This document shows positions 2,755-53,592 of a stretch of DNA of 64,000 bases, piece after piece. The position numbers were made by a program, and so were the translations under genes. Under the pieces are notes generated by a model, which searched no databases, was not told the origin of the DNA, and saw only the letters and a program-made list of their open reading frames with translations. Each line of letters opens with the position of its first letter. The first letter of the stretch is position 1. Source of the stretch: a virus (lineage: Duplodnaviria; Heunggongvirae; Uroviricota; Caudoviricetes); the IMG/VR virus record IMGVR_UViG_2740892230_000016; one strand, given 5' to 3'.

Positions 2755-5742
2755 ATGAGCTTAAGCGATCAGGTGGTGATGGCCACCAGCATAGAAACGC
2801 TGATCGAGCTGCTAAAAAACCTGCCCGATTACGGGCGGGTTTCGTATGTGGTGACAGCGAAGGGAGACGAGGTAAAAACAGCGTTTGATATCGTCGATGC
2901 CTCAACTCTTTTGGTATCCAATACTCTGGACGGGAAAATTAATCCGGACTATCCCCAGGAACTTCAGCCGCGCGACCGGACCCGCGCATCCAGCCTTCTT
3001 CAGGTTAACCAGATATCCAAGGATTTGCGGCCTGCTCAGCTTACCGATTCCGGTCTATCCAGCCATGGCGCGCCGATAATTGGTGAGGACAATGCCGTTG
3101 AGTCAGGTAATGGACGGACCATGGGGATCATTAAAGCCTATCAGGACGGCAATGCGGATCGGTATCGGGAGTACCTGATTGAACATGCGACCGAATTCGG
3201 CATACGACCTGAAAAGGTTGAATCAATGACGGCTCCGGTACTGGTGCGCCGCCGGTTAACGAAGGTTGACCGCGTTCAGTTTGCCAAGGACTCAAATATT
3301 TCTGATCTTCAGGAAATGGCAGCCAGTGAAAAGGCTTTTGTTGATGCCGACAACATAACTCCGGCGATGATGGCGCTGTTTAACCCGTCAGAAAGCGGAG
3401 ATCTGCTTAGCCGCAGTAATGACGCGTTTATTCGCGGATTCATGACGCAAGTTGGTGCCACACAGGCGGCTGGCCTTGTAACTGAAGATGGGCGACCAAC
3501 ACGGCAACTTGTTGACCGTATACAAAACGCGATCTTTGCCAAGGCATATAAGGATGCGCGCCTGGTAAGGATGGTTGCAGAAGAACCTGATCCGGATATG
3601 CGTAATGTTCTGACGGCGCTTAATGCGGCAGCCAATGATTTTGTCCAGATGCAGGCTTTATCAGGAGAAGCGCACAAGCAGGCTGTGACAACTATTGTTG
3701 ATGGCATTGAGACAGCGGATAGCCTCGATAAAAAGGCGCTGGCGGCATTGAAAGATGCGGTAGACCTGGTAAGGCAATCGAAGGAGTCAGGCCAGCATAT
3801 TACCGATGTTATTGCTCAGGGGGATATGTTCAGCGAAACGGCCCCGGAAGTGAAAGCACTCGCGTTGTTCATCGTCGCGAATAACCGTAGCGCGAAGCGT
3901 ATGGCCACCGCCTTTAAGTTGATGGCGCAACGTATCAATGATGAGTTACAGCACCAGGGCCAGGCGCTCGGGGATATGTTTGGCGGCGGCGATGTGTCGT
4001 TACAGGATATCCTTCGCCAGGTGTCTCAGGAACTGGAATACGAAGGCATGCAAGGGATATCCGGCGGTCTTTTCGAGTCCGTTTCCGGCGGTAGTTACAA
4101 CGGTGTTGCTCCGTATACCAGTTTGCTATTACATCGGGCATCCGGCATCAAAGACATTATTCATCTGATCAGGCTGCTTTCCCGCACAGATCCCCAGGAT
4201 GAACAGCTTGTACAAGTGCTTGCGCATTTTGTTCGAATGCCTGTTGCCGACGTGAAAAAATGGTGCCGATTATTCGGTATCAGCAATTCGTTACTTCGCG
4301 GCTTGTTAAATCACGCATCCTCCCTTGGGCGCGATGGCTTTGACGAGATAGCGCAGGCGATAAAAAACGGAGATATGCCACCAGCTATTGACTGGTTTTC
4401 CATTCGCCCAACCAGGGTGAAAGCATTCCTTAGCGCGGCGCATTCGGCATCACCATTGGCAGAAATGGTTCAGAGGTTGTCGCTCATATTCACAGACCAT
4501 ACCGCGTTGGGTGATCTGACTCTGGACGAGATGAAAGAAGCCTCCATTCAGTGGGCCGATCAACAAAATGAGGTTAACTCAGACTTCTTGCCAGCATTCA
4601 GGAAGGCCGTTGGTAAAGCGGATGATGCCCGTGGAATTCTGAAGGCATTTAAGGCATTGCAAAGTCGGGTTAATAAACATGTCGGTGATATCGATGGGGT
4701 AACGGCGGAAGGCAGGGATATCCTTAAAGAGCACGGCATAACGCCAGAGTTTATTGATGAGATCAGGACGGATATGCAGCGTGAGGTCGTATCGTCCCTG
4801 CAAATTGTAGCCAGAGCGTTGGCGGATGCTAATCCGAAGAGTGCGGCCATTGTTAACCGGGTTATTGGTGATATTGAAGCATCGGAGGGCATGGGGGCGC
4901 TGAAACTCTTCCTTTCGCGAGCGTTTAATCCTAACGGCAATATTCTCCCTGGCATTATTGGTGAGGCTAAAAAGTATGTCAGTGAAGAAGAACTTGAGCA
5001 GCTTGACCAACTACTTAAGCGATTCTCATACAACCCGCAGACACGCTGGCAAATGAATCAGCGAAGTATGGGTTCGGTCCACGAGAAAGTGTTATCTGCC
5101 ATGAACAGTGCGATCGCAAACTCATCCGTATCTGAAGAAAAAGCTCTTGAGTGGGCCGACTCTTTTATCACGGAAGAAGTGGAAGAAGCCCGCGCTGGAC
5201 AGAATGGTGGGATAGACCTGCGCAAGGAACTTGCTGATATTTATCGCCTGACCGGCGGTAAAATTTCGACCTTATCAAAGGTGGTTCACCACAAGGGAAG
5301 GGCATATGCAAATCTTAATGGTGTTGTTGCTGTCAATTTGAACGATGAAAATGCAAGTGCACTGTGGCACGAGCTGGGTCATCATCTTGAGTACAGTAAC
5401 CCTGGTTTGTTAGAGAAAGCCCGGTCATTCCTGAAGGCCAATGTTGAAGGGGATAAGCCATCTTTCGTTAATATCGGTGGGCGTGGCAAGCCTGAATGGT
5501 GCTTCAGATCTCGATTGAGTAATATTTATATGGCGAAGGTATACCCGCCAGTCTCAGTGAGTAACTCCGGGAAAATTCGGCAGAAATCACCGACCATTTC
5601 CAAAACGTCAGCAACGGAAGTATTCTCTATGGCTCTTCAGTTGTATCATGACAAAGAGGCCGCTGCCGCATCACTGATGAATGGTGACGGATTGCTGGAA
5701 CTGTTATTAGGTGTGGCAAAGGAGCTAAATAATGCAGATTAA
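2755..5742 (+). CDS. ddrB: DdrB-like large protein (995 aa)
   Basis: 995-aa ORF following ddrA in dar operon; ATG at 2755. Confidence 0.6.
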   Translation: MSLSDQVVMATSIETLIELLKNLPDYGRVSYVVTAKGDEVKTAFDIVDASTLLVSNTLDGKINPDYPQELQPRDRTRASSLLQVNQISKDLRPAQLTDSGLSSHGAPIIGEDNAVESGNGRTMGIIKAYQDGNADRYREYLIEHATEFGIRPEKVESMTAPVLVRRRLTKVDRVQFAKDSNISDLQEMAASEKAFVDADNITPAMMALFNPSESGDLLSRSNDAFIRGFMTQVGATQAAGLVTEDGRPTRQLVDRIQNAIFAKAYKDARLVRMVAEEPDPDMRNVLTALNAAANDFVQMQALSGEAHKQAVTTIVDGIETADSLDKKALAALKDAVDLVRQSKESGQHITDVIAQGDMFSETAPEVKALALFIVANNRSAKRMATAFKLMAQRINDELQHQGQALGDMFGGGDVSLQDILRQVSQELEYEGMQGISGGLFESVSGGSYNGVAPYTSLLLHRASGIKDIIHLIRLLSRTDPQDEQLVQVLAHFVRMPVADVKKWCRLFGISNSLLRGLLNHASSLGRDGFDEIAQAIKNGDMPPAIDWFSIRPTRVKAFLSAAHSASPLAEMVQRLSLIFTDHTALGDLTLDEMKEASIQWADQQNEVNSDFLPAFRKAVGKADDARGILKAFKALQSRVNKHVGDIDGVTAEGRDILKEHGITPEFIDEIRTDMQREVVSSLQIVARALADANPKSAAIVNRVIGDIEASEGMGALKLFLSRAFNPNGNILPGIIGEAKKYVSEEELEQLDQLLKRFSYNPQTRWQMNQRSMGSVHEKVLSAMNSAIANSSVSEEKALEWADSFITEEVEEARAGQNGGIDLRKELADIYRLTGGKISTLSKVVHHKGRAYANLNGVVAVNLNDENASALWHELGHHLEYSNPGLLEKARSFLKANVEGDKPSFVNIGGRGKPEWCFRSRLSNIYMAKVYPPVSVSNSGKIRQKSPTISKTSATEVFSMALQLYHDKEAAAASLMNGDGLLELLLGVAKELNNAD

Positions 5743-43458: not shown

Positions 43459-43468
43459 NNNNNNNNNN
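43459..43468. other. N10 scaffold gap flanked by duplicated rha 3' end
   Basis: 40 bp upstream of gap repeats sequence at about 44090-44127. Confidence 0.9.
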
Positions 43469-43773
43469 CGATCGGTTTCGAGCATTTTTGCGTGACGGGC
43501 TGCGCCGCGTTCTGTCCAGAGGATGAGGGAGCGAACGTTACGGGCGATTTTCACAGAAGGTCTTAAAGACATGCTGTGCTTAAATTCCCGCAACTCCTCA
43601 TTCTCAAGTAAAAAGTAGTGCTTACCGATAACAAATCGTCCAGAATTCCGATTGAAATTTTTTCGGATGTAATCTGGTTCTGTGCCATATAAGCTGGCAA
43701 GAAGCTCTGTAGTCACCACAGGTATATTACTAAATGAAATTATGGAGAGGGACTCCACGGAGATGGTTTTCAT
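43469..43773 (-). CDS. antirepressor N-terminal (KilA-N/ORF6N-like) fragment, 3' end truncated by scaffold gap
   Basis: MKTISVESLSIISFSNIPVVTTELLASLYG...; ORF runs into N10 at 43459-43468; sequence before the gap duplicates the 3' end of the rha gene. Confidence 0.45.
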
Positions 43774-44028
43774 GCTTTGCGTCCTACTTGATATTTTGAT
43801 TTACCCCTTTTGAGAGGGTGACCGGGCGCTCAAAACCGCAAGTAGTCGGCGGGCATATTCCCATTGCTGGTATTGTATTAGCCGCACGCCCGGTCATAAA
43901 CCAAGAAGACTGGACACAAAAAAACCGCATGTCTGTCGGGCGCGGTAACCGCTACTTGCTAAGGTGTTTTGAGCACCATGAGGCAGAATATATCCCCGTT
44001 AATGCAGCATTGTCAAACGATCTGTTCT

Positions 44029-44802
44029 TTAAAGACTTAACGAGAAGCCTTTTCGGGAATTTCGATCTGACAATCTTGAAATATCCTGTAGCGTGCGGCG
44101 CATTTCTTCCGTCAGATGCTTGAAGGCGTTAAATTCGGCGACAGCGGCGTCAACGTTATAGCCTTTGCTGTGTAGCTCATTGAGGATGCGCATAGTTGGG
44201 CTTGGCATATCGAAGAGCACGGAAGCATCAAGGCTGATAACCTTGCGATCAACATAGTTCATCGTGGCGTAGGGATGGTTATCTGAGAACCACGAGAGAG
44301 GGTAGTTGATAGATAGCGTTGATTCTGGAAGCTGAAGTTGTTCTGGGATTTTTTGACTGAAATAGCAGTCTTCCAGTTTTTCGAACACTTNNNNNNNNNN
44401 GTGATGCTCTGAAAACCACGACAAAGGGAAATTGATATTCATCGCAGGAGAAGACAGGGCCAGTTGTTTCTGTTCCCATAGTTGTTTTTCCATGCGATCG
44501 AATTCAGCAATGTAGGCTTCCTTGAATGCAGCTGCTTTTTTGCCGGTGAAGCCCATCACCAGAAAAACGAAGCCGTTTTTGGTGATTTGGTACATTGGGC
44601 GTTGTTCGCCTTTGGCGTCGGTGTAGGTAACGTCCTCAAAATTGAGGGCGTTAAATTTCTCTGAGCATTCAATATTTGCAATGGCGCGCAATACGTTATC
44701 GTGTCGCTTGCAAAAATATTCGGCAACGGCAAAGGACGTAGTAACAGCGCGACCATTGGAAATGGTGATTTCAGGTTGAGAAAGGACTGGGATAGTAGCC
44801 AT
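44029..44802 (-). CDS. Rha-family phage regulatory protein (contains N10 gap)
   Basis: MATIPVLSQPEITISNGRAVTTSFAVAEYFCKRHDNVLRAI Rha-like N-terminus; strong AAGGAGG RBS 8 nt upstream of ATG at 44802; N run at 44391-44400. Confidence 0.65.
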   Translation of the reverse strand: MATIPVLSQPEITISNGRAVTTSFAVAEYFCKRHDNVLRAIANIECSEKFNALNFEDVTYTDAKGEQRPMYQITKNGFVFLVMGFTGKKAAAFKEAYIAEFDRMEKQLWEQKQLALSSPAMNINFPLSWFSEHHXXXXVFEKLEDCYFSQKIPEQLQLPESTLSINYPLSWFSDNHPYATMNYVDRKVISLDASVLFDMPSPTMRILNELHSKGYNVDAAVAEFNAFKHLTEEMRRTLQDISRLSDRNSRKGFSLSL

Positions 44803-44967
44803 AATGGCAGCCTCCTTGATTGGTGATTGATAACCACCGCTGGAGGTAGCAAGCTCGCTGGCGGTGGACTGTACAGGGTTGCTACAACTGGCAATCAAGG
44901 GAACCAGCCCGACCGAAGTCGGCCCCATACAGCCCACCATTGATAAGATGTGCGTGTATGTCGATAC

Positions 44968-45044
44968 AAAAAAAGACGCTGGCGCGTCTGTATCGCCTCG
45001 ATTGTCAGCGGGGTAGCAATCCCGACACCCGTTTTATGAGGTGT
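44968..45044 (-). ncRNA. candidate small RNA (about 77 nt) with own promoter and terminator
   Basis: Minus-strand TTGACT-17 bp-TATATT promoter at 45051-45079, no ORF, ending at terminator AGACGC-gcca-GCGTCT plus U run at 44968-44989. Confidence 0.4.
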
Positions 45045-45050
45045 TCGCCA

Positions 45051-45079
45051 AATATAGCCCCGACATCACACGCAGTCAA
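45051..45079 (-). promoter_or_regulatory. sigma70-like promoter of candidate sRNA
   Basis: -35 TTGACT and -10 TATATT with 17-bp spacer. Confidence 0.5.
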
Positions 45080-45290
45080 TACCGTTCTTTCTCAGAAACG
45101 CTTTGGCGGTGCCGCCTGCACCCCAAAACATTCCCTGTATTGGTCAGCGCCAACTTCCTGCCAGTGTTGCCCGTTCTCACGCCGTTCTCGCTCTCGCGCG
45201 GGGATACTCTCTCATCGACCGGATCGCACCCGATGATACAGCACGTTTACGTGTAGGGGTCTAAACAGGTCATTGACGCTGTAAAGCTCC

Positions 45291-45354
45291 AGATTGTTAA
45301 AGAGCATTTTGCGGCGGGTTAAGTCGCGCCGTACGACTGATTTATGTAGCCCTG
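45291..45354 (-). promoter_or_regulatory. nut-like antitermination element (boxB-like hairpin followed by rrn-type boxA)
   Basis: Minus-strand GCCCT-uacac-AGGGC (stem identical to lambda boxB) and 30 nt downstream TGCTCTTTAACAA (rrn boxA consensus). Confidence 0.4.
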
Positions 45355-45385
45355 TGTAAGGGCGCGATGTTTCTGGCTTGAAATA

Positions 45386-45430
45386 AATATAACTTGCGGT
45401 GATTTTCATGTAAATACCGTTGGTGCTTTT
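45386..45430 (-). promoter_or_regulatory. PL-like promoter with OL-like operators
   Basis: Minus-strand -35 TTTACA, 17-bp spacer, -10 TATATT; overlapping AATCACCGCAAGTTATA closely resembling lambda OR3 TATCACCGCAAGGGATA. Confidence 0.55.
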
Positions 45431-45556
45431 TAAGGGCGAGAAATTATTACTTAACTGATTTTTAAAGTGATTTATTTTTTAAGGGGGCAGATAACAGGAG
45501 GGGATATGCAAAGAAAAACCCGGCGCATGGGCCGGGCTATTTATCTGGTCCTGTTC

Positions 45557-46510
45557 TCATTCAGTAGAGTAGGGGCCAAGAAATCGCACTCCGTTGAAGT
45601 GAATAAGATGAGAAGGTGCATCAGCCACCCATACCTCTGTTTCCCATGCGATTTCACCAAGATATCGCCCCATGATGGAGCGATTTGGAAAAGCGGTCAC
45701 ATAGACAAGTCCGGCTGTTGATCCGGCAAACAGCCTGGCAAGCTCAGCATGCCGCTTCCCATCAACCGGTCCATGACTGGTGACAGACTCAACCAGTAGC
45801 AGCCAGTTTTTCGCAGTAAAATGTAGCACCACATCTGGCATTTTACCGTGTGAATCCACATCAACACCTAGCCCGGCCAGCAGTGGAGCGTCGAAGTAGC
45901 CCCACTTTTCGCCAGTGTCGCCAGCATAGACCAGCACGCTACCCGGAGCAAAACGTGGGGCGAAGTCCTCTATTATGGCACGGATAAGTTCGCTGTGCTC
46001 GCCGGGACTGAGGGTTATTTGCTGGCCCGCAGCAATTTCAACAGGGATACGATTCTGTTCGCGCTCCTTAGCATAGCGGGTAACCAGCGTTTCACGCTCG
46101 GCTAAATAGGTTGCAAGGCTATCGTGCCATGCCGGGCTGCCGAAAGTGCGTAGCATGGACAGAGCAGCAGGTTCGATCTGATAAACAGCCTTCGGGCTGT
46201 TCACTGGGCGATCGGGCTTGTCCGGATTGTAGAGGGCTACTCCAGCAGCGCAGAACTGATGCATAGACTGGCGGCGGAATGTCTCACGAGTATTGGGTGC
46301 GTAGACCTTGCCGTAGTGCTCCCGAACCCAATTCATGATTGGTGTAATGCCCACAAGCGGATTTTCCGCGTCGGCCCATGCTTTTCCCGGTGTGAGGTTC
46401 AGGAGTGCCAGCAAACACAAAGCAGAACGCTCATTCTGCTGCGCTCTGGGCAGGCCTAAGGATGCTATAATTTGCTGAGCGGCCTCAATATAATCATTTT
46501 GGTTGTTCAT
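45557..46510 (-). CDS. putative type II restriction endonuclease (317 aa), possibly BsuBI/PstI-like
   Basis: Start overlaps stop of adjacent N6-adenine methyltransferase (ATGA); size as for PstI/BsuBI endonucleases; family assignment from memory, not verified. Confidence 0.5.
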   Translation of the reverse strand: MNNQNDYIEAAQQIIASLGLPRAQQNERSALCLLALLNLTPGKAWADAENPLVGITPIMNWVREHYGKVYAPNTRETFRRQSMHQFCAAGVALYNPDKPDRPVNSPKAVYQIEPAALSMLRTFGSPAWHDSLATYLAERETLVTRYAKEREQNRIPVEIAAGQQITLSPGEHSELIRAIIEDFAPRFAPGSVLVYAGDTGEKWGYFDAPLLAGLGVDVDSHGKMPDVVLHFTAKNWLLLVESVTSHGPVDGKRHAELARLFAGSTAGLVYVTAFPNRSIMGRYLGEIAWETEVWVADAPSHLIHFNGVRFLGPYSTE

Positions 46511-47976
46511 GCAGTCAGAGCTCCTAGCTTAGCGTCAATATGTTCTTGCGTGAGAGTTTCTTGTTGCATAGCCCACTTGCCAAGCTCTATCAGAGTGTCA
46601 CGGCTTGGGTACTTAATCATCTTGAGGTCGGTTGCATTGACCTGTGTATGCCCGTTGAAGCGACGGAAATACTTATCCACTGCGGTAGTGTTCAGGAACA
46701 CGGCCAAGCCACGGGCCAGCGCCTCGGGTAACCCATGTTTGTTCTCATGAAACACGTTCATGTGATTTTCAAATCCCAACACTGAATACTCACTGAAGGT
46801 AGCAGGATCAACGACGCTTGCTACCACTCGGCGCTTTTCCTCCTTCGACGAGAAACGACGCACCACACAATAAAAACCGTTCGGGTAAAGCCACTTTTCT
46901 GTCTCGTCGTTGCGCATGATTGCGTTGGGTTTCTTCAAACCTTCCACAGGCCAGACAGTGCTACTCATACTCAAATGGCTCGGGTAGATCAGGGGAACAG
47001 TTCCTTCTTCTGGCATGCTGCGCAAATGAGCTTTCAGTCGGAAATCAACTATCGGTCCGGTCGATACCTTCACGCCAATATCAGCCAGCGAACATTGTAC
47101 GGCAGATGATAACTCAATGGTGCTTTTCTCGAGCGTGGTCGGCACATGAATAAACCGCTCCGAATCGTCCGGGTACACAATCTGGTCAAATGGGTGTTCG
47201 TAGGTGACTAGGTCAAAAAAGCTATCATCGGTCGAAGTTGTGACTGTAACAGCCTCCTGACGGCCTCCACGCTCCAGGCGGATGATAATATTTTCCTGCA
47301 ACACATCGTCATCCCTGAAAGCTTTGCTACGTGATTCGAACAAATGAATATGGCGGATTGCTGCCCGCTCAAGTATGAAATTACGGAACGGACGGTAATA
47401 CGGTCCGTTGCAGAAACTACGTGGGATTATGGCCACTATCTGCCCGCCAGGTGCAACCTCACCTACAGCCAGTGCAACAAAGGCGGAATACAGATTTACC
47501 GTCTCGATACCGACAGTGCGAAGAGCCTGCCGGTGGGCTGACTGGCTATTGATCTTCTTGTAAGGCGGATTAAGTATTGCATGGGTATAACCTCGATCCT
47601 GTAGACCTTCGGCGGTTGCCAGCTCAATATAATCCCCTTCGATGATGCGGGGCGTCACTCTCCTGTACCCGGTTAAGTGCTTCGCAAGGTGACCACACAG
47701 CTTTTTGTCGATTTCGTAGGCTGTTGCCTCGACAGACTCAAAGCCAAACTCGCCAACCAGCCAACGGTCGAGGAAGGCGCAAGACAGTGCGCCTAAACCA
47801 GCGCCTGCGTCCAGTAGACGGCAAGTTTTCATTGTGCTCGGTGGAAACAAGGAGGCCATAAAACGGGCCACGCCAGAAGGCGTCATGAACTGGCCGAACT
47901 CTGCTTTGTGTTTACGCGCGGTACGGGGAGACAGCTCGCGACGCACGCTGTCTGCGACGTCTAGCTTTTGAAGCAT
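46507..47976 (-). CDS. N6-adenine DNA methyltransferase (gamma-class), 489 aa
   Basis: SAM-binding motif LLDAGAGLGAL followed by catalytic NPPY; located directly downstream of cI in the rexAB position. Confidence 0.8.
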   Translation of the reverse strand: MLQKLDVADSVRRELSPRTARKHKAEFGQFMTPSGVARFMASLFPPSTMKTCRLLDAGAGLGALSCAFLDRWLVGEFGFESVEATAYEIDKKLCGHLAKHLTGYRRVTPRIIEGDYIELATAEGLQDRGYTHAILNPPYKKINSQSAHRQALRTVGIETVNLYSAFVALAVGEVAPGGQIVAIIPRSFCNGPYYRPFRNFILERAAIRHIHLFESRSKAFRDDDVLQENIIIRLERGGRQEAVTVTTSTDDSFFDLVTYEHPFDQIVYPDDSERFIHVPTTLEKSTIELSSAVQCSLADIGVKVSTGPIVDFRLKAHLRSMPEEGTVPLIYPSHLSMSSTVWPVEGLKKPNAIMRNDETEKWLYPNGFYCVVRRFSSKEEKRRVVASVVDPATFSEYSVLGFENHMNVFHENKHGLPEALARGLAVFLNTTAVDKYFRRFNGHTQVNATDLKMIKYPSRDTLIELGKWAMQQETLTQEHIDAKLGALTA

Positions 47977-48070
47977 AACTAATCCTCTTTACGTGGCATG
48001 ATGATGCCAACGTGCTTTTGACATCCTCCACATTCTTCAGGCGTGAAGGATGTCAAATCACTCTGTGAGC

Positions 48071-48784
48071 TCAATCAAAAGTCTCATCATTCCACTGCGA
48101 TTTGATGACCTTTCCGACAAACTGGCAGTTTTCGTTACACTCAATCATGTCGAATCGTGGGTTGAGCGGCTCCAGGTACGCTTTACCGCTCTCACGAATG
48201 AATCGTTTGAAGGTAAATTCATCGCCGTTCATTCGGGCCACGCAAAAATCGCCATCCTCGATTTCCCGTTCAGGGTCAACGAGTATCAGCATACCTTCAG
48301 GGAAGCTGGGTTTACCACCCTGCGGTGCGGTCATTGAATGCCCCTTGACCTCCAGCCAGAACGACCTGTCACTGGCTTTTGTGGTGGTGGAGATCCATTT
48401 AATCGCATCTTTTGCGGTGTACGAAATATCATCCATTGAGAATGCGCCAGCTTGTACGCAGGAGAGTAACGGATATTCGTAAGCGGGGACACGAGTTAAT
48501 GGCTCTTCAATTGCGAGCGCCATTTCTGCAATAGATTTTGCCAGGCTGGGACTGAAATCTCCGACCTTTACATTCAGTATCTTAGCAAGCTGTGCTGCGT
48601 GGCTGGCATTTATGGCGTTGATGCCAGCCATTAGCTGATTAACAGCGCTTTGGGTAACACCTAATTCATAGGCTAATGATTCCTGCGACAGGCCTAACTC
48701 TTTCTTTTTAGCGTTAAAAATACTTTTCAGACGCTTGGCGTCTTCCAGTTGCTCAGGGGTTAACGGTTTCTTTTTCATGTTCAT
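48071..48784 (-). CDS. cI: lambda-like CI repressor (237 aa)
   Basis: Collinear similarity to lambda CI over full length ([17 protein letters not shown]..., [40 protein letters not shown]); 237 aa as lambda CI. Confidence 0.9.
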
Positions 48785-48879
48785 ACCATATCACCTTTGG
48801 TTATATGTAATGAAATATCTGCGGTGTTGACATTTTAATAACTGTGCGTAATGATATGGGCATTTTGAAGGAGTCAGTT
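48785..48879. promoter_or_regulatory. OR operator/PRM/PR region
   Basis: TATCACCTTTGGTTATA (OR3-like), ATATCTGCGGTGTTGACA containing a TTGACA -35 for rightward transcription toward cro. Confidence 0.6.
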
Positions 48880-49083
48880 ATGGCGATGAAAAAAGAGACC
48901 CTGGCTGATTACGTATACAGGTTCGGCCAAAAGAAAGCCGCTAAGGACTTTGGCGTGGCGCAGAGTGCAATCAGTAAAGCGCTTCTCGTCGGACGAGAAA
49001 TATACGTCAAAACCTTTGATGACGGCACAGTTGAGGCGGAAGAGGTTCGTCCGTTCCCTGCGTTCGTAAGAGGCGATGATTAA
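48880..49083 (+). CDS. cro: Cro-like repressor (67 aa)
   Basis: [17 protein letters not shown] similar to lambda Cro KDLGVYQSAINKAI; GAAGGAG RBS 7 nt upstream of ATG at 48880. Confidence 0.8.
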
Positions 49084-49113
49084 TCCTGGACACACAGCCC
49101 ATCGGAGGTGTGA

Positions 49114-49407
49114 GTGAACAGGCAAATCAAAACGGTTATGCCCGAGCAGTACTGTGATGCTGATCGGGACTGGATACAGGAGCAATTGTTACAGCTAGAC
49201 CCGACCACCCGGGTAAAAATTGCAGCAGAGTACGCGAGAGTGTACCAGGAAGAGTGGGACAAGGAGCCTGTATCGTTCAGGAAGGGCAACAGGGCAAGAC
49301 GGAGCGCCAACACCCGGTTACGGGTGTATGTCCAGAAGTACGCGAGAGCCAGCCGTGGCTGGATGCTTTCGCCAGTAGCGGTACGGAAGTTTCCCCCGAC
49401 ACCATGA
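49114..49407 (+). CDS. hypothetical protein in cII position (97 aa)
   Basis: GTG start preceded by GGAGG; same length as lambda CII but no recognisable sequence similarity. Confidence 0.35.
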   Translation: MNRQIKTVMPEQYCDADRDWIQEQLLQLDPTTRVKIAAEYARVYQEEWDKEPVSFRKGNRARRSANTRLRVYVQKYARASRGWMLSPVAVRKFPPTP

Positions 49408-49614
49408 TGGCGGTTAGTTGCGCTAGAGATAATTTCAAGTGCAACTAATTTCCTGAAAGGAAGCGAGGAGGGGGTAAGGGGGTGGAGTCGTTGGTAAGGC
49501 CTGTATCCCTTGGCCTAGGCCAGAAGGCAGGTACATAGGTTAGGTAGATCACTGTATAAGCGCGCGATAGTTTCTGGTGAAATGATTATCGAGCTAACTA
49601 TTGAGTGATAAACT

Positions 49615-49992
49615 ATGTCGGCAGCAACCAAATCGGCACTGATCCGTACACTGAGCACTGTACCACTGAGAACAGAGGAGCGTTACAGCTTTCTGGCTGA
49701 TGTTGTAACGATCCTTGAGTCACAGGGGATGCATGTGGCAAGCAATGTCACAGTAAGAATCGATGGCAGAAATTTCCGTGTTGATATTCTCGCAACAGCA
49801 AAAACTGGTGGGAGTGTGGCTATCGAGATCGATCGTAGCTCTCCGCGACCCCGCTCAGTCATGAAATTGCGTGAATTGGCACGTCGTGGCACTGAAGGCT
49901 TTGTGTTGCTTCGAATGCCAAAGAAACTGACCAGTTATAGCGATGCTGGGATCGATATCATCCCGGCGAATGGCAAGGGGGCGTCATGCTGA
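49615..49992 (+). CDS. hypothetical protein (125 aa) preceding helicase
   Basis: ORF overlapping helicase start. Confidence 0.35.
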   Translation: MSAATKSALIRTLSTVPLRTEERYSFLADVVTILESQGMHVASNVTVRIDGRNFRVDILATAKTGGSVAIEIDRSSPRPRSVMKLRELARRGTEGFVLLRMPKKLTSYSDAGIDIIPANGKGASC

Positions 49993-51506
49993 AAATCACC
50001 CCAAACTTTGCTCAGGAGCGCGGTTTAAACCAGCTGCGGCACCAGTGGAAACAGCATCGCACGTACCTGATGTATGCACCCACTGGCTCTGGCAAAACTG
50101 GTCTTGCAGCATTCGTCACTGCCGGAATGGTTGAACGTGGTATGCGGGTGATGTTTGTCTGTCCGTACACCATCCTGCTGAACCAGACAGCGGAACGTTT
50201 CACCGAATACGGTTTGCCGTGGGAAGAAATCAGTTTTGTATGGCGTGATCACCCTAACTATGACCCGTCACGACTGATTCAGATTGCCAGTGCCGACACG
50301 CTGATCCGTCGTGAGTTTCCTGACAACATCGATCTGCTGATCATCGATGAAGCACACATGAAGCGTCGTGCGTTACTTGAGGTTATCCGGGACAAAGATA
50401 TCAGGGTTCTTGGGCTTTCCGGCACCCCGTTCGCAGCCTGGATGGGGAAGTACTACGAATGCCTGATCAAGCCTACAACGATTCGTGAACTTATTCAGCG
50501 TGGTGATCTGAGCGATTATGAGTTTTTTGCCCCCTCAATGCCTGATCTGGCTGGCGTAAAAACCAGTAACACCGTATTTGGACGGGATTACAACGAGGAA
50601 CAGCTCGCATCCATCATGGGGAGTTCGGATCTGGTTGGCGATATCGTCAGCAACTGGCTTGAGAATGGCGAGGATTTACCGACGATCTGCTTCTGCGTGA
50701 ATGTGGCTCATGCGAACTTTGTTACCCGTGAGTTTTTACAGTCTGGCATTGGCGCAGAGGTGATGACGGCAGATACCCCCCATGATGAACGACAGGACAT
50801 CATTCGCCGTTTTGAAGAGGGTGCGACCAAAATAATTGTCAACGTTGGCGTACTGGTTGCGGGATTTGACAGCGATGTTCGCTGCCTGATCTACGCCCGT
50901 CCGACCAAATCAGAAATCCGCTGGTTGCAGTGCATCGGGAGAGCGTTACGTACTGCGTCTGGTAAAAAACGCGCATTGATTTTCGACCATTCCGGCACGG
51001 TTCATCGGCTGGGCTTCCCCGAGGATATCGAGTATGACGAACTTCCGGGAAAAAATGACGGAATGAAAGCGTCTGCTGGCGGGAGTGAGGTTAAGGCTGA
51101 GAAACTTCCCAGGGAATGCCCCAAATGCCACTTCATGAAGCCTGCTGGCGTGCATATGTGTCCCAAATGTGGATTTCGTCCTCTTGGTGGTGATGACGTG
51201 GCGACAGATCGCGATCGTAAGCTTTCACGCGTCAACAAAGGGAAACGCGAATACACCCGTGAGGAAAAACAGCGTTGGTGGAGCGAGATCAAGGGGTATC
51301 AGAATTACCGCAACGCGACAGGTAAGCCACTGAGTGACGGATGGTGTGCTCATACCTACAAGGAGAAGTTCGGGGTTTGGCCTAAAGGCTTCAGTAATGC
51401 GCCGCTGCAAACCTCAGTTGAAGTGTACAACTTCATCAAGTCAAAGACCATTGCCTATGCCAAAGGGCGCAAGAAAGCCATGACAGGAGGCCAGCATGCG
51501 AACTAG
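49986..51506 (+). CDS. SF2 DEAD/DEAH-box replicative helicase with C-terminal zinc ribbon
   Basis: Walker A APTGSGKT, DEAH-like LIIDEAH; C-terminal CPKCHF...CPKCGF. Confidence 0.75.
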   Translation: MLKITPNFAQERGLNQLRHQWKQHRTYLMYAPTGSGKTGLAAFVTAGMVERGMRVMFVCPYTILLNQTAERFTEYGLPWEEISFVWRDHPNYDPSRLIQIASADTLIRREFPDNIDLLIIDEAHMKRRALLEVIRDKDIRVLGLSGTPFAAWMGKYYECLIKPTTIRELIQRGDLSDYEFFAPSMPDLAGVKTSNTVFGRDYNEEQLASIMGSSDLVGDIVSNWLENGEDLPTICFCVNVAHANFVTREFLQSGIGAEVMTADTPHDERQDIIRRFEEGATKIIVNVGVLVAGFDSDVRCLIYARPTKSEIRWLQCIGRALRTASGKKRALIFDHSGTVHRLGFPEDIEYDELPGKNDGMKASAGGSEVKAEKLPRECPKCHFMKPAGVHMCPKCGFRPLGGDDVATDRDRKLSRVNKGKREYTREEKQRWWSEIKGYQNYRNATGKPLSDGWCAHTYKEKFGVWPKGFSNAPLQTSVEVYNFIKSKTIAYAKGRKKAMTGGQHAN

Positions 51507-52467
51507 AGATGCAGCCGTGGGGCACTGGAGCCGGATTTTTGAATATTACGGCATGCCTCCTGTTACTGGTGTGAAACATTACAACGGACCCTGCCCGATA
51601 TGTGGTGCCAGAGGTAAATTTCGCTGTGATGATAAGGATGGTTCCGGTTCATGGATTTGCGTCTGTGGTCACGGGGACGGGATGAATCTGTTGCAACTTG
51701 CCACGGGTAAGCCCTGGGTGACGTTGTGTGATGAAATCGATCGGCTGATCGGAAATACCTGGAAGAGGGAGAAAGTCAGCCAGCCTGTAACAGAGATAAG
51801 CAGAAAGCGGGAGCTGGTCATAGATAAGTTTGCCGGACTCCCGTGTCTGCGGGGTACAACAGGTGAGGCGTACCTGCAGGGGAGGGGAATACTCCAGTTA
51901 CCGACCGAATCCGTGCGTTTTTGTGACCGTCAGATCGCCAGCGGGCGCGAATATCAGGCAATTTACGCCATTGCAACAGATGACAAAGGTTCTCTTTGCT
52001 ATCTGCATCGTACGTTGCTGGATGGTGATCGCAAGGCGAATGTAGAGGCGGCTAAAAAAATGACCGCGCTACAGGAGTTGCCTGGTTTGCAGCATGCCAA
52101 ATCGGTGGCAATACGCCTGTATCCGGTGTCGTCCACTCTGGGGATAGCCGAGGGTATCGAAACTGCGCTTTCATGCCGTCAAATCTTCCGCTGCAATGTG
52201 TGGTCAACAATGAACTCCGGTTTTATGGAGAAGTTCATTGCGCCACCTGGCGTTAATCACCTGATTATCTTTGCTGACAATGATGCGCACGGCGCAGGTC
52301 TGGCGGCTGCCTTTAAATGTGGGCATAAGAATCTCATGAGTTGCAATGACGTTGAGAAAGTCAGCATTCGCTGGCCTGACTTGCCGGATTTTAACGACAT
52401 GCTCATTCAGGGGTGTGAAGCCCGTGAACATGTGTTGACGCGCAAATTCAAAGCGGAGGCTGCCTGA
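51496..52467 (+). CDS. primase-like protein with N-terminal zinc-binding domain
   Basis: CPICGARGKFRCDD...CVCGHGDG zinc motif typical of phage primases; follows helicase with overlapping start. Confidence 0.55.
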   Translation: MRTRDAAVGHWSRIFEYYGMPPVTGVKHYNGPCPICGARGKFRCDDKDGSGSWICVCGHGDGMNLLQLATGKPWVTLCDEIDRLIGNTWKREKVSQPVTEISRKRELVIDKFAGLPCLRGTTGEAYLQGRGILQLPTESVRFCDRQIASGREYQAIYAIATDDKGSLCYLHRTLLDGDRKANVEAAKKMTALQELPGLQHAKSVAIRLYPVSSTLGIAEGIETALSCRQIFRCNVWSTMNSGFMEKFIAPPGVNHLIIFADNDAHGAGLAAAFKCGHKNLMSCNDVEKVSIRWPDLPDFNDMLIQGCEAREHVLTRKFKAEAA

Positions 52468-52916
52468 TGGAAATAGAGATGATCAAGGCGGCTAATGGCG
52501 TATTTGTACCGGCGTATGAGCGCGATTTACCCCGACTGGCAAAATTTAAAAACGGTGAGCTGTATACACTGGAAGCAAAACTTACCCGTAACCCATCTTT
52601 TCACCGGAAGATGTTCGCTTTTCTTAATTTCTGCTTTCAGTACTGGTGCGCTGAACATGCTGGATACGAATTCTCTGATGAAGCGACGCAGTTTGATGAG
52701 TTTCGTAAAAATCTGACAATTCTTGCCGGGTTCTATGATGTGGTCACAACCATAAGAGGCGAGGTGAGATATCGGGCAAAAAGCCTGAGTTACGCGAATA
52801 TGGATCAGGATGAGTTTGAACGTTGCTACAACGCAATGATTAATGCCGCGTTAAAACATGTGTTCGGGCGCTCAAACAATCCTGAACTGAATAACCGCCT
52901 GCTGTCGTTTTTCTGA
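52467..52916 (+). CDS. DUF1367-like phage protein (149 aa)
   Basis: ORF in nin-region context; family from memory. Confidence 0.35.
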
Positions 52917-52917
52917 G

Positions 52918-53592
52918 GTGATGATGAAGCAACGTAAACCAAAAAAATGCAAAGTGTGCGGCTCCTCGTTTGTGCCGTTCCGCTCATATCAGAAAGTTTG
53001 CTGTGGTCAGTGCGCACTGGAACTGGTCAGAAAAGAAAAGGCGATAGCTTCAGCAAAAGAGCAGGCAGACAAGCTGAAAGCGCGCAGGAGGGACTTACAG
53101 CCCCGCAGTTACTGGATTAAGCAGGCACAACAGGCTGTGAATGCTTATATCAGGGAGCGGGACCGTCATTTGCCGTGTGTTTCATGCGGGACGTTCGATT
53201 CAGCCCAGTGGGATGCAGGCCATTACCGTACAACAGCTGCGGCACCTCAGCTCAGATTTGATGAACGCAATATCCATAAGCAATGCGTGGTGTGTAACCA
53301 GTACAAAAGCGGAAATCTCGTTCCGTATCGTGTCGAACTGATTAACCGCATCGGGCAGGAAGCAGTAGACGAAATCGAATCAAACCATAGTCGCCACCGC
53401 TGGACTGTCGAAGAGTGCAAGGCGATCAAGGCAGAGTATCAACAGAAACTTAAAGACCTGCGAAACAGCAGAAGTGNNNNNNNNNNGAACCATAACCGCC
53501 ATCGCTGGACTGTCGAAGAATGCAGGGCGATCAAGGCGAAGTATCAGCAGAAACTTAAAGACCTGCGAAACAGCAGAAGTGAGGCCGCATGA
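52918..53592 (+). CDS. ninG: NinG-like recombination protein (contains N10 gap and duplicated C-terminal segment)
   Basis: [13 protein letters not shown] and [16 protein letters not shown] cysteine clusters typical of Nin[13 protein letters not shown] segment duplicated across N run 53477-53486. Confidence 0.7.

Follow-up and report, generated by a model that had tools for sequence, protein, structure and literature searches.

The subject of this analysis is the leader of the early-left operon in a 64,000-nucleotide (64-kb) stretch of viral DNA, IMG/VR record IMGVR_UViG_2740892230_000016, referred to below as the window. The element that it contains is a lambdoid Stx2a prophage of the genus Oslovirus, 'Eru1' type, identical to P13374, the phage of the 2011 O104:H4 outbreak; positions 44900-45560 show 100% identity to P13374, phiON-2011 (O104:H4), TL-2011c (O103:H25) and dozens of complete genomes of Escherichia coli strains that produce Shiga toxin (STEC). 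The segment comprises a cI-controlled PL promoter with OL operators and the long untranslated leader of the early-left operon. It belongs to the family of phi80 nutL leaders and is kept in a phage that has neither N nor nutR. All coordinates of the leader region are on the minus strand, and the features are as follows.

45412..45428, minus strand: candidate operator OL2, AAGCACCAACGGTATTT, overlapping the -35 element of PL
45386..45414, minus strand: PL promoter, TTTACA-17-TATATT (promoter scan, 10/12 matches; transcript start predicted near 45379)
45388..45404, minus strand: operator OL1, AATCACCGCAAGTTATA, overlapping the spacer and -10 element of PL
45212..45409, minus strand: 65-aa open reading frame (ORF), judged not to be a gene
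45307..45379, minus strand: 5' part of the leader with two hairpins (folds), GCCCUUACACAGGGC at 45363..45349 and AGUCGUACGGCGCGACU at 45338..45322
45294..45306, minus strand: boxA of the exact rrn type, UGCUCUUUAACAA, aligned with the annotated phi80 'nutL boxA'
45119..45306, minus strand: block homologous to phi80 nutL, 94% identical over 188 nt and starting exactly at boxA (blastn, alignment)
45242..45253, minus strand: boxB-type hairpin CACGUAAACGUG, CACG-UAAA-CGUG, about 40 nt downstream of boxA

Promoter, operators and nutL-type elements

The PL position is equivalent to that of the annotated phi80 pL. An earlier sequence-only reading of this DNA had described a PL-like promoter overlapping an operator similar to lambda OR3, and this is borne out: the OL1 17-mer matches OR3 (TATCACCGCAAGGGATA) at 14 of 17 positions. 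In the right operator of the prophage, three related 17-mers (48789, 48813, 48837) are arranged with the lambda-like spacing of 24 bp. The same spacing separates OL1 from the weaker 17-mer at 45412..45428, which shares 10 of 17 positions with the OR 17-mer at 48789 (counted partly by eye) and is a putative OL2. PL and OL are hereby located for the PST2-type phages, in which an earlier study found no operators (PMC4587872).

BoxA is situated at about +74 from the predicted PL start. The 13-mer is unique in the window and was found in 0 of 100 shuffles, and GCUCUUUAACA, within 45305..45295, fits the functional boxA consensus GYTCTTTAANA (PMC5725501). The annotated phi80 'nutL core', CACGTAAACGTG, corresponds to window 45253..45242. 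Because the phi80 'nutL boxA' and 'nutL core' align with the window boxA and with this hairpin, the order is the canonical one of boxA then boxB, as in lambda. The stem of the boxB-type hairpin covaries in relatives (AU/GC at two pairs), and the loop of the relatives is A-rich.

The sequence-only reading had pointed to a hairpin with the lambda boxB stem and to an exact rrn-type boxA, both of which exist (45363..45349 and 45306..45294, respectively), and had concluded that boxB precedes boxA as in rrn operons. That order is not upheld, given the phi80-homologous, covarying hairpin downstream of boxA. The upstream hairpin GCCCUUACACAGGGC has the stem GCCCU..AGGGC and is present in the minimum-energy fold, and 0.02 chance occurrences of the exact lambda boxB stem pattern are expected per window. 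Its loop is the non-GNRA UACAC (GACAC in three variants), and it is without counterpart in other leader subfamilies; in the alignment, the whole 5' part (45307..45379) has no sequence counterpart among phi80-type leaders. Pattern search, blastn and a covariance model detected no second boxA, boxB or leader copy in the window, that is, no nutR.

No credible ORF lies ahead of the antirepressor ATG at 44804. The 65-aa ORF (45409..45212) does start inside the promoter, as had been remarked, and upstream of the predicted transcript start; it has no Pfam or PHROG match and its frame is not kept in other leader subfamilies. The longest ORF from the predicted start (~45379) to the next terminator (44989..44974) has 34 aa (GTG start, 45180..45076); the earlier count of ORFs of 8 to 31 aa overlooked this one. 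A small coding ORF in the leader was also considered and rejected: the 31-aa ORF here lies in the same frame as a 26-aa ORF of phi80, but the remaining subfamilies show either an ORF of 8 codons or no ORF at all.

A covarying RNA domain and its family

Downstream of boxA the leader contains the following structural elements.

45157..45269, minus strand: structured RNA core (RNAalifold), with helix P1 formed by CCUGUU (45269..45264) and GGCAGG (45162..45157)
45258..45256 with 45172..45170, minus strand: second closing helix of the core, CCC/GGG (RNAalifold)
45281..45272 with 45154..45145, minus strand: predicted 10-bp extension of the helix (minimum-energy folds; pair-preserving single changes seen by eye)
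45212..45236, minus strand: best-conserved hairpin of the family, UCAUCGGGUGCGAUCCGGUCGAUGA (99.5% of cells paired; compensatory U-A/C-G changes at two pairs)

The last of these hairpins is kept from E. coli to Klebsiella and Edwardsiella phages. In an alignment of 21 sequences, the four helices are paired in 93.3% of cases, versus 27-48% with the partner slid; eight helix pairs have changed on both sides, and the observed pairing was reached in 0 of 500 shuffles. The covariation result was similar with 57 distinct sequences. The leader contains a multi-helix RNA domain of about 115-135 nt, which includes the boxB-type hairpin and is supported by covariation. Across the family the conserved order is boxA, a spacer, a small hairpin with variable stem and A-rich loop, the near-invariant hairpin CAYCGGGYGCGAUCCGGUCGRUG, a variable hairpin and GAACGGGNAACACUGGC.

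A covariance model, R1, built from the leader alignment recognizes the window leader over its full length (175.7 bits, E = 2.9e-36). The window, phi80 and all of 99 related loci each yield a single copy with this model, and HK022 putL/putR, lambda nutL and the 933W nutL/nutR regions yield none. Because each phage has a single copy and there is no nutR, the element is PL-specific, unlike the paired nut and put sites. In Rfam the leader has no match (44750-45560, E <= 10), isrK and C4 being the sole matches. The leader follows PL in HK225, in the Klebsiella phages KO-TP1 and ST13-OXA48phi12.2 and in the Edwardsiella phage Edno5, and prophages of Enterobacter and Kosakonia carry it as well, as do 120 IMG/VR contigs, giving 66 distinct sequences in all. 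A search of genome contigs with a 20-nt GC-rich pattern returned 120 loci, of which 7 were real and the remainder mostly chance matches in high-GC genomes. Among 5426 complete E. coli genomes, 224 carry the leader, with a core identity of at least 99% in 147 and of 80-95% in 77; no RefSeq feature is annotated under it among the 30 records listed of these 224 genomes.

Several further observations concern the sequences that adjoin the leader in relatives. CCAAAGCATTTCTCCCGCATCAGCGGGTAACGACAGAGGGTAAGG, a small hairpin plus Shine-Dalgarno site, stands ahead of many unrelated first genes, phi80 N included (locus L003 at 3300-3352 and many IMG/VR loci, e.g., L176, L207, L216, L238 and L248). It looks like a portable linker for the exchange of early-left genes, and the junction in the window is formed by its first half. 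One large group of relatives has, after the leader, a strong Shine-Dalgarno sequence, a mini-ORF of 2-3 codons (e.g., AUG AAG CAC UAA) and a conserved, apparently structured stretch of about 150 nt (L048, L085, L128, L139, L237 and L250, 0-250 nt past the leader). A second boxB-like hairpin, CGC-ACGUAAA-GCG, similar to the boxB of Edno5, lies in the distal leader that is deleted from the window type (L002, of the phi346/PA2 type, 4212-4325; phi80, L003, 3190-3300).

Absence of N and its replacement

The lack of N in Eru1/Oslovirus Stx phages is already known from published work; such phages, which also lack CII and CIII, nevertheless formed lysogens and produced phage in C600 (PMC8044961). The sequence-only reading had likewise found no N gene here. 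This holds for the whole 64-kb window, where a tblastn search with seven N types gave only hits of E >= 0.01; the queries were the N proteins of lambda, 933W and phi80, Edno5 gp49, HK225_041, and the P22 and phi21 N sequences. For phi80 N the best tblastn E value in the window was 0.27. The local ORFs have no N-like PHROG or Pfam match, and the P13374 annotation carries no N gene.

Loss of N to misassembly had also been contemplated and is ruled out. The window is a draft scaffold with 10-N gaps, but 44401-50000 is one gap-free contig that is 100% identical to the finished P13374 genome, and the sequence of the region is identical in finished genomes and in >50 independent records. The junction found in PA2-type phages also speaks against such a loss. 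The phi80 leader runs on for 165 nt into gene N (98 aa). PA2-type O157 phages, which are also N-less, keep the entire phi80-type leader up to CGCCAAAGCATTTC, which is followed by the isrK promoter, and their junction lies about 40 nt ahead of the position of the phi80 N start codon. Compared with the PA2 type, the window lacks 109 nt of distal leader between 45119 and 45111, and its own junction is the following.

45095..45108, minus strand: junction CGCCAAAGCGTTTC, where phi80-type homology stops and the isrK module begins (comparison with the phi346/PA2 type and phi80)

As judged from these sequence comparisons, N has been replaced at the conserved junction CGCCAAAGC(A/G)TTTC by an immI-like module of isrK, C4-orf45 and Rha/antirepressor. 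The replacement is precise, the PA2 type keeping the full phi80 leader up to the junction, and it leaves a phage that has a nutL homolog with neither N nor nutR to go with it.

The phi80 N gene is found in 77 of the 5426 genomes, mostly phi80 lysogens from the laboratory. Since this number equals the count of genomes with 80-95% core identity (74 + 3) and not the count with at least 99%, the totals, which were matched as totals and not genome by genome, indicate that no N is supplied in trans to the Stx phages.

Conservation of the leader among N-less variants

Variability was counted in 18 distinct N-less variants, several of them with different operator regions. The variable columns are distributed as follows.

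OL/PL: 39 of 136
5' leader: 3 of 73
boxA: 0 of 13
spacer: 0 of 23
core: 1 of 121
distal tail: 17 of 69
isrK: 9 of 76
C4: 4 of 88
antirepressor gene start: 10 of 54

The leader as a whole varies at 4 of 230 columns, and the flanks at 12-29%. It is the best-conserved stretch of the region and is not decaying, so that the similarity to boxA and boxB remarked on from the sequence is one that related prophages share.

The downstream module, terminators and neighboring genes

The stretch up to the next terminator, in which the sequence-only reading had seen only short ORFs, does lack N, but it holds a promoter and a small RNA (sRNA), which are followed by a C4-type RNA and an antirepressor gene.

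45051..45079, minus strand: isrK promoter, TTGACT-17-TATATT (promoter scan), directly ahead of the Rfam isrK match
44967..45044, minus strand: IsrK-type sRNA with its own terminator (Rfam RF01394 at 45044..44969, 61.8 bits versus a gathering threshold of 50)
44989..44974, minus strand: stem of the isrK intrinsic terminator, followed by a T run (terminator scans)
44857..44944, minus strand: C4-type antisense RNA (Rfam RF01695, 77.4 bits versus a gathering threshold of 45)
44401..44804, minus strand: 5' part of a Rha/antirepressor gene (ATG at 44804, Shine-Dalgarno AAGGAGG), up to the scaffold gap 44391-44400

The C4 RNA overlaps an orf45-like upstream ORF (MVGCM..., ATG at 44940) with two in-frame AUGs, as described for orf45 of Gifsy-1 (PMC4825925). 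The C4 loop CCUUGAUUG is, as read from the sequence, perfectly complementary to CAAUCAAGG (44806-44814) around the antirepressor's Shine-Dalgarno site, an arrangement known from c4/ant of P1. When C4 or isrK was paired with the mRNA in RNAduplex, only long duplexes without specificity resulted, which were uninformative. The antirepressor matches PHROG 995/518/1760 (E = 2.7e-111) and is named 'Rha family phage regulatory protein' in RefSeq. Just past this first antirepressor gene there is an Rfam 'sRNA-Xcc1' match (43812-43895, minus strand; 79.6 bits versus a gathering threshold of 53), preceded by the best promoter-like site of the region (44016..43987, TTGACA-18-TATATT, 11/12); it may be the positional counterpart of Gifsy-1 IsrJ.

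The PL transcript meets a single strong intrinsic terminator, that of isrK, 170 nt past the leader. In the family at large, at least one strong sense-strand intrinsic terminator lies within 3 kb downstream in 58 of 77 distinct contexts; 73 strong terminators are sense and 24 antisense, at a median of 425 nt past the leader. The rightward early operon (48855-54521, plus strand) has no strong predicted intrinsic terminator before tR' (54502-54521), which lies after a PR'-like promoter, and therefore neither N nor nutR would be needed there.

The first genes past the leader occur in 56 unrelated contexts and encode mostly small acidic proteins of unknown PHROGs. Only subsets have a recognizable partner: 7-9 of about 120 loci carry phi80 N, 8 carry a basic protein of the HK225_041 type, and Edno5 carries a P22-type N. 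The boxB identical to that of phi80 is present in about 56 loci, and phi80 N in only 7 of them. A protein of 70-74 aa with the basic N-terminus LPKKRQKPRKQAIKEA (phrog_5305, function unknown) is the first gene after the leaders of one boxB subtype (L005, L143, L190, L196, L212, L213, L215, L227 and L246) and is a candidate for an unrecognized N analog of its subfamily. Downstream of cro, at the position of cII, a 97-aa ORF (49116-49409, plus strand) contains the Arg-rich stretch RKGNRARRSANTRLR; it belongs to phrog_852 (function unknown), has no Pfam match, and is named 'CII' in one phage record.

Around the leader, the local gene order in the early-left direction is as follows.

48784..48071, minus strand: cI
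47976..45557, minus strand: methyltransferase and BsuBI/PstI-family endonuclease
45517..45538, minus strand: intrinsic terminator of the cI/methyltransferase/endonuclease transcript (terminator scan), just upstream of OL/PL
past the leader, minus strand: isrK sRNA, C4-type RNA, two antirepressor genes, kil, gam-like, recT, exo and ssb, in this order

The type II restriction-modification pair (489-aa methyltransferase and 317-aa endonuclease) thus occupies the position of lambda rexAB between cI and PL. It is probably co-transcribed with cI, ending at the terminator at 45538..45517; a 32-nt stretch in this terminator area is 87.5% similar to the 933W tM region. Runs of 10 N are situated at 43459-43468, at 44391-44400 and at 16 other places. 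The contig between the first two (43469-44390) aligns to two overlapping parts of P13374, and the two paralogous antirepressor genes look collapsed or chimeric in it, with an artificial 303-aa ORF as the consequence; 44401-50000 is unaffected. Elsewhere in the window, three tRNA genes lie upstream of the stx region, and STnc100 (207.7 bits) stands back to back with the anti-sRNA AsxR (88.1 bits) downstream of it; these stretches (54954-55203 and 56612-56871) are typical of Stx2a phages.

Possible modes of action of the leader

Host factors or an RNA element, both already envisaged from the sequence, are still the best class of explanation. The anatomy and conservation of the leader lead us to a proposal on which we are evenly divided, namely that it is a retained cis-acting leader that gives PL transcripts boxA- and Nus-assisted processivity independently of N. 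The leader would owe its retention to a cis function that does not need N. NusB-S10, together with NusA, NusG and SuhB, would be recruited by the consensus boxA to RNA polymerase that has started at PL; the adjacent RNA domain probably helps and may add resistance to intrinsic terminators. PL transcripts would then be Rho-resistant across about 575 nt of untranslated RNA and would at least partly read through the isrK terminator, so that, once cI is inactivated, the antirepressors and kil, gam, recT, exo and ssb would be expressed. Transcripts from the isrK promoter, which start past the leader, would stay unmodified and in most cases end at the isrK terminator, yielding a short sRNA.

Several points weigh against N-independent processivity of this kind. 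Complexes of the rrn boxA/Nus type efficiently counter Rho-dependent terminators and not intrinsic ones. Because such complexes perform poorly on intrinsic terminators, boxA alone would be insufficient for read-through of the isrK terminator or of the tL1-type terminators in relatives. N proteins diverge fast, and an unrecognized partner protein is possible. That the leader hardly varies could be due to a recent spread, or to a use as a recombination linker, and not to selection on RNA function. With fold z-scores of -0.99 and +0.63, the single sequences are no more stable than shuffled controls; single-sequence folding is uninformative, and covariation was needed for this reason. Finally, 78 of 120 family members have the boxA variant UGCUUUUUAACAA, which departs from the consensus at C4, and C4 is among the positions changed in the suhB boxA double mutant C4T/T6C, which lost association with SuhB (PMC5725501). 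In the family, the boxA variant shows no clean correlation with the presence of N.

A bolder version is tentative, and we think it possible but not probable. In it, boxA plus the domain of about 135 nt would constitute an undescribed class of cis-acting antiterminator RNA, working alone or with host Nus factors only, as a boxA-containing, PL-only counterpart of HK022 put, and phi80 N would be an accessory passenger. If so, the polymerase would resist intrinsic terminators, and the leader would be the early antitermination device of many N-less lambdoid phages, those of the O104:H4 and O157 clade-8 Stx2a type included.

That the leader is a non-functional relic, left behind after N was swapped and persisting through recent ancestry or as a crossover point between mosaic phages, seems unlikely. 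Both N and nutR are missing; the 109 nt of distal leader that the PA2 type keeps are already gone from the window type; the junctions lie at short sequences common to many phages; and the phage is viable without N (PMC8044961). On the other hand, the leader is the least variable part of the region while its flanks differ by 12-29% across the 18 variants with their different operator regions, the boxA of the window lineage is a perfect consensus, and the leader stands upstream of intrinsic terminators in most N-less relatives.

It is improbable, too, that an ordinary nut site is served here by an unrecognized N analog, encoded by the phage (e.g., the 49116-49409 product) or by another resident prophage. 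The N families are very diverse, phi80 N itself being of 'unknown function' in PHROGs; the P22-type N of Edno5 lies about 700 nt downstream of the leader; the HK225_041-type basic protein tracks one boxB subtype; and the post-cro ORF has its Arg-rich stretch. However, the window contains no homolog of the seven N types, and the post-cro ORF, with its phrog_852 assignment and lack of a Pfam match, is not linked to the leader in phi80-type phages. Judging from the matching counts, phi80 N is absent from genomes with the window leader type, and Eru1 phages grow in E. coli C600 (PMC8044961). An identical boxB also precedes dozens of unrelated, mostly acidic first genes, and the right operon has no second nut site.

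We regard as quite improbable a role of the RNA domain in processing, stability or translational control, for example as an RNase III site of the kind found in the hairpin of the lambda N leader, or by boxA looping that, as for suhB or in lambda N autoregulation, represses translation of the first gene. The domain is confined to PL, immediately ahead of the first gene, with no occurrence in the right operon; the folds predict a long closing helix; and in lambda, nutL and Nus factors repress N translation from a highly structured N leader (PMC5725501). Yet the first gene differs in the 56 contexts and lies at distances of 50 to >250 nt, its place being taken here by an sRNA promoter, and the sense-strand terminators in 58 of the 77 contexts would still call for read-through.

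A nut site of the rrn kind, with the upstream hairpin GCCCU-UACAC-AGGGC serving as a boxB ahead of boxA, can be set aside as very improbable: rrn leaders likewise have a hairpin ahead of boxA, and the hairpin here is rare by chance, forms in the minimum-energy fold and has a stem invariant in the 18 variants, but its loop is not GNRA-like, phi80-type leaders carry unrelated sequence in its place, a homologous, annotated and covarying hairpin lies downstream of boxA, and the boxB hairpin of rrn operons is in any case dispensable.

Significance and comparison with known systems

The covariation-supported RNA family defined here is absent from Rfam and from genome annotation. Searches of the literature on antitermination in P13374/O104:H4 and on phi80 nutL yielded nothing on the leader, and both the retained, conserved phi80-type nutL leader and its RNA family appear to be undescribed in the literature searched. 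Eru1/Oslovirus Stx2a phages (O104:H4 in 2011, O103:H25 in 2006, O157 clade 8) have been linked to high rates of hemolytic uremic syndrome (HUS) and to unstable lysogeny. Early-left expression begins here with antirepressors, and these act back on induction and thereby on the output of toxin. Should the leader function without N, it would represent a second answer, besides HK022 put, to the question of how N-less lambdoid phages pass their early terminators, and simple reporter constructs would suffice to test this.

The module downstream of the leader resembles isrK-orf45-anrP of Gifsy-1 (PMC4825925) and the immI c4-ant region of P1/P7 in its isrK and C4 RNAs, its orf45-like ORF with two AUGs and its Rha/antirepressor gene. 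As in Gifsy-1, a leaky isrK terminator would be expected to give short and long isoforms. However, the window module lies directly behind a PL/nutL-type leader under cI control, whereas that of Gifsy-1 is downstream of antQ, and the window orf45 is fused in frame to the antirepressor ORF, whereas the Gifsy-1 orf45 ends in AUGA.

With the E. coli rrn leaders and suhB the window shares an exact rrn boxA in a long, untranslated, promoter-proximal RNA and a hairpin upstream of boxA. By analogy, no dedicated phage protein would be required, and the host factors (NusB/E/A/G, SuhB and S4) might suffice alone. Unlike rrn, the window has no recognized boxC, has an extra conserved RNA domain 3' of boxA, and has an intrinsic terminator in its path.

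In comparison with the N/nut systems of lambda, P22 and 933W, the 17-bp OL operators are close to those of lambda, and boxA is followed by a short hairpin with an A-rich loop. The window differs in having neither N nor nutR and in not resembling the nut regions of lambda or 933W, whether by sequence or by covariance model. Furthermore, boxA and boxB are separated by about 40 nt, versus 8 in lambda, and boxB lies inside a larger folded domain.

HK022 is likewise an N-less lambdoid phage with a folded RNA just past the early promoter, and by analogy with put the leader could act in cis on the polymerase. Neither blastn-short, whose only matches were chance words of 8-11 nt, nor the covariance model detected any similarity to putL or putR. 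In contrast to put, the window site is single and confined to the PL operon, contains a boxA, which put does not need, and is about twice the size of put.

The closest counterpart is the nutL-N region of phi80 (GenBank M11919, JX871397). It continues into N and the tL1 terminators, whereas the window, with the distal 109 nt deleted, continues into isrK, C4-orf45 and the antirepressor; its boxA is UGCUUUUUAACAA, whereas that of the window is the exact consensus; and the 5' 73 nt and the operators are unrelated. Nevertheless, the 188 nt that start at boxA and include the 'nutL core' hairpin and the structured domain are 94% identical between the two, and in both phages the site lies right after PL and is single in the genome, no nutR being annotated in phi80 either.

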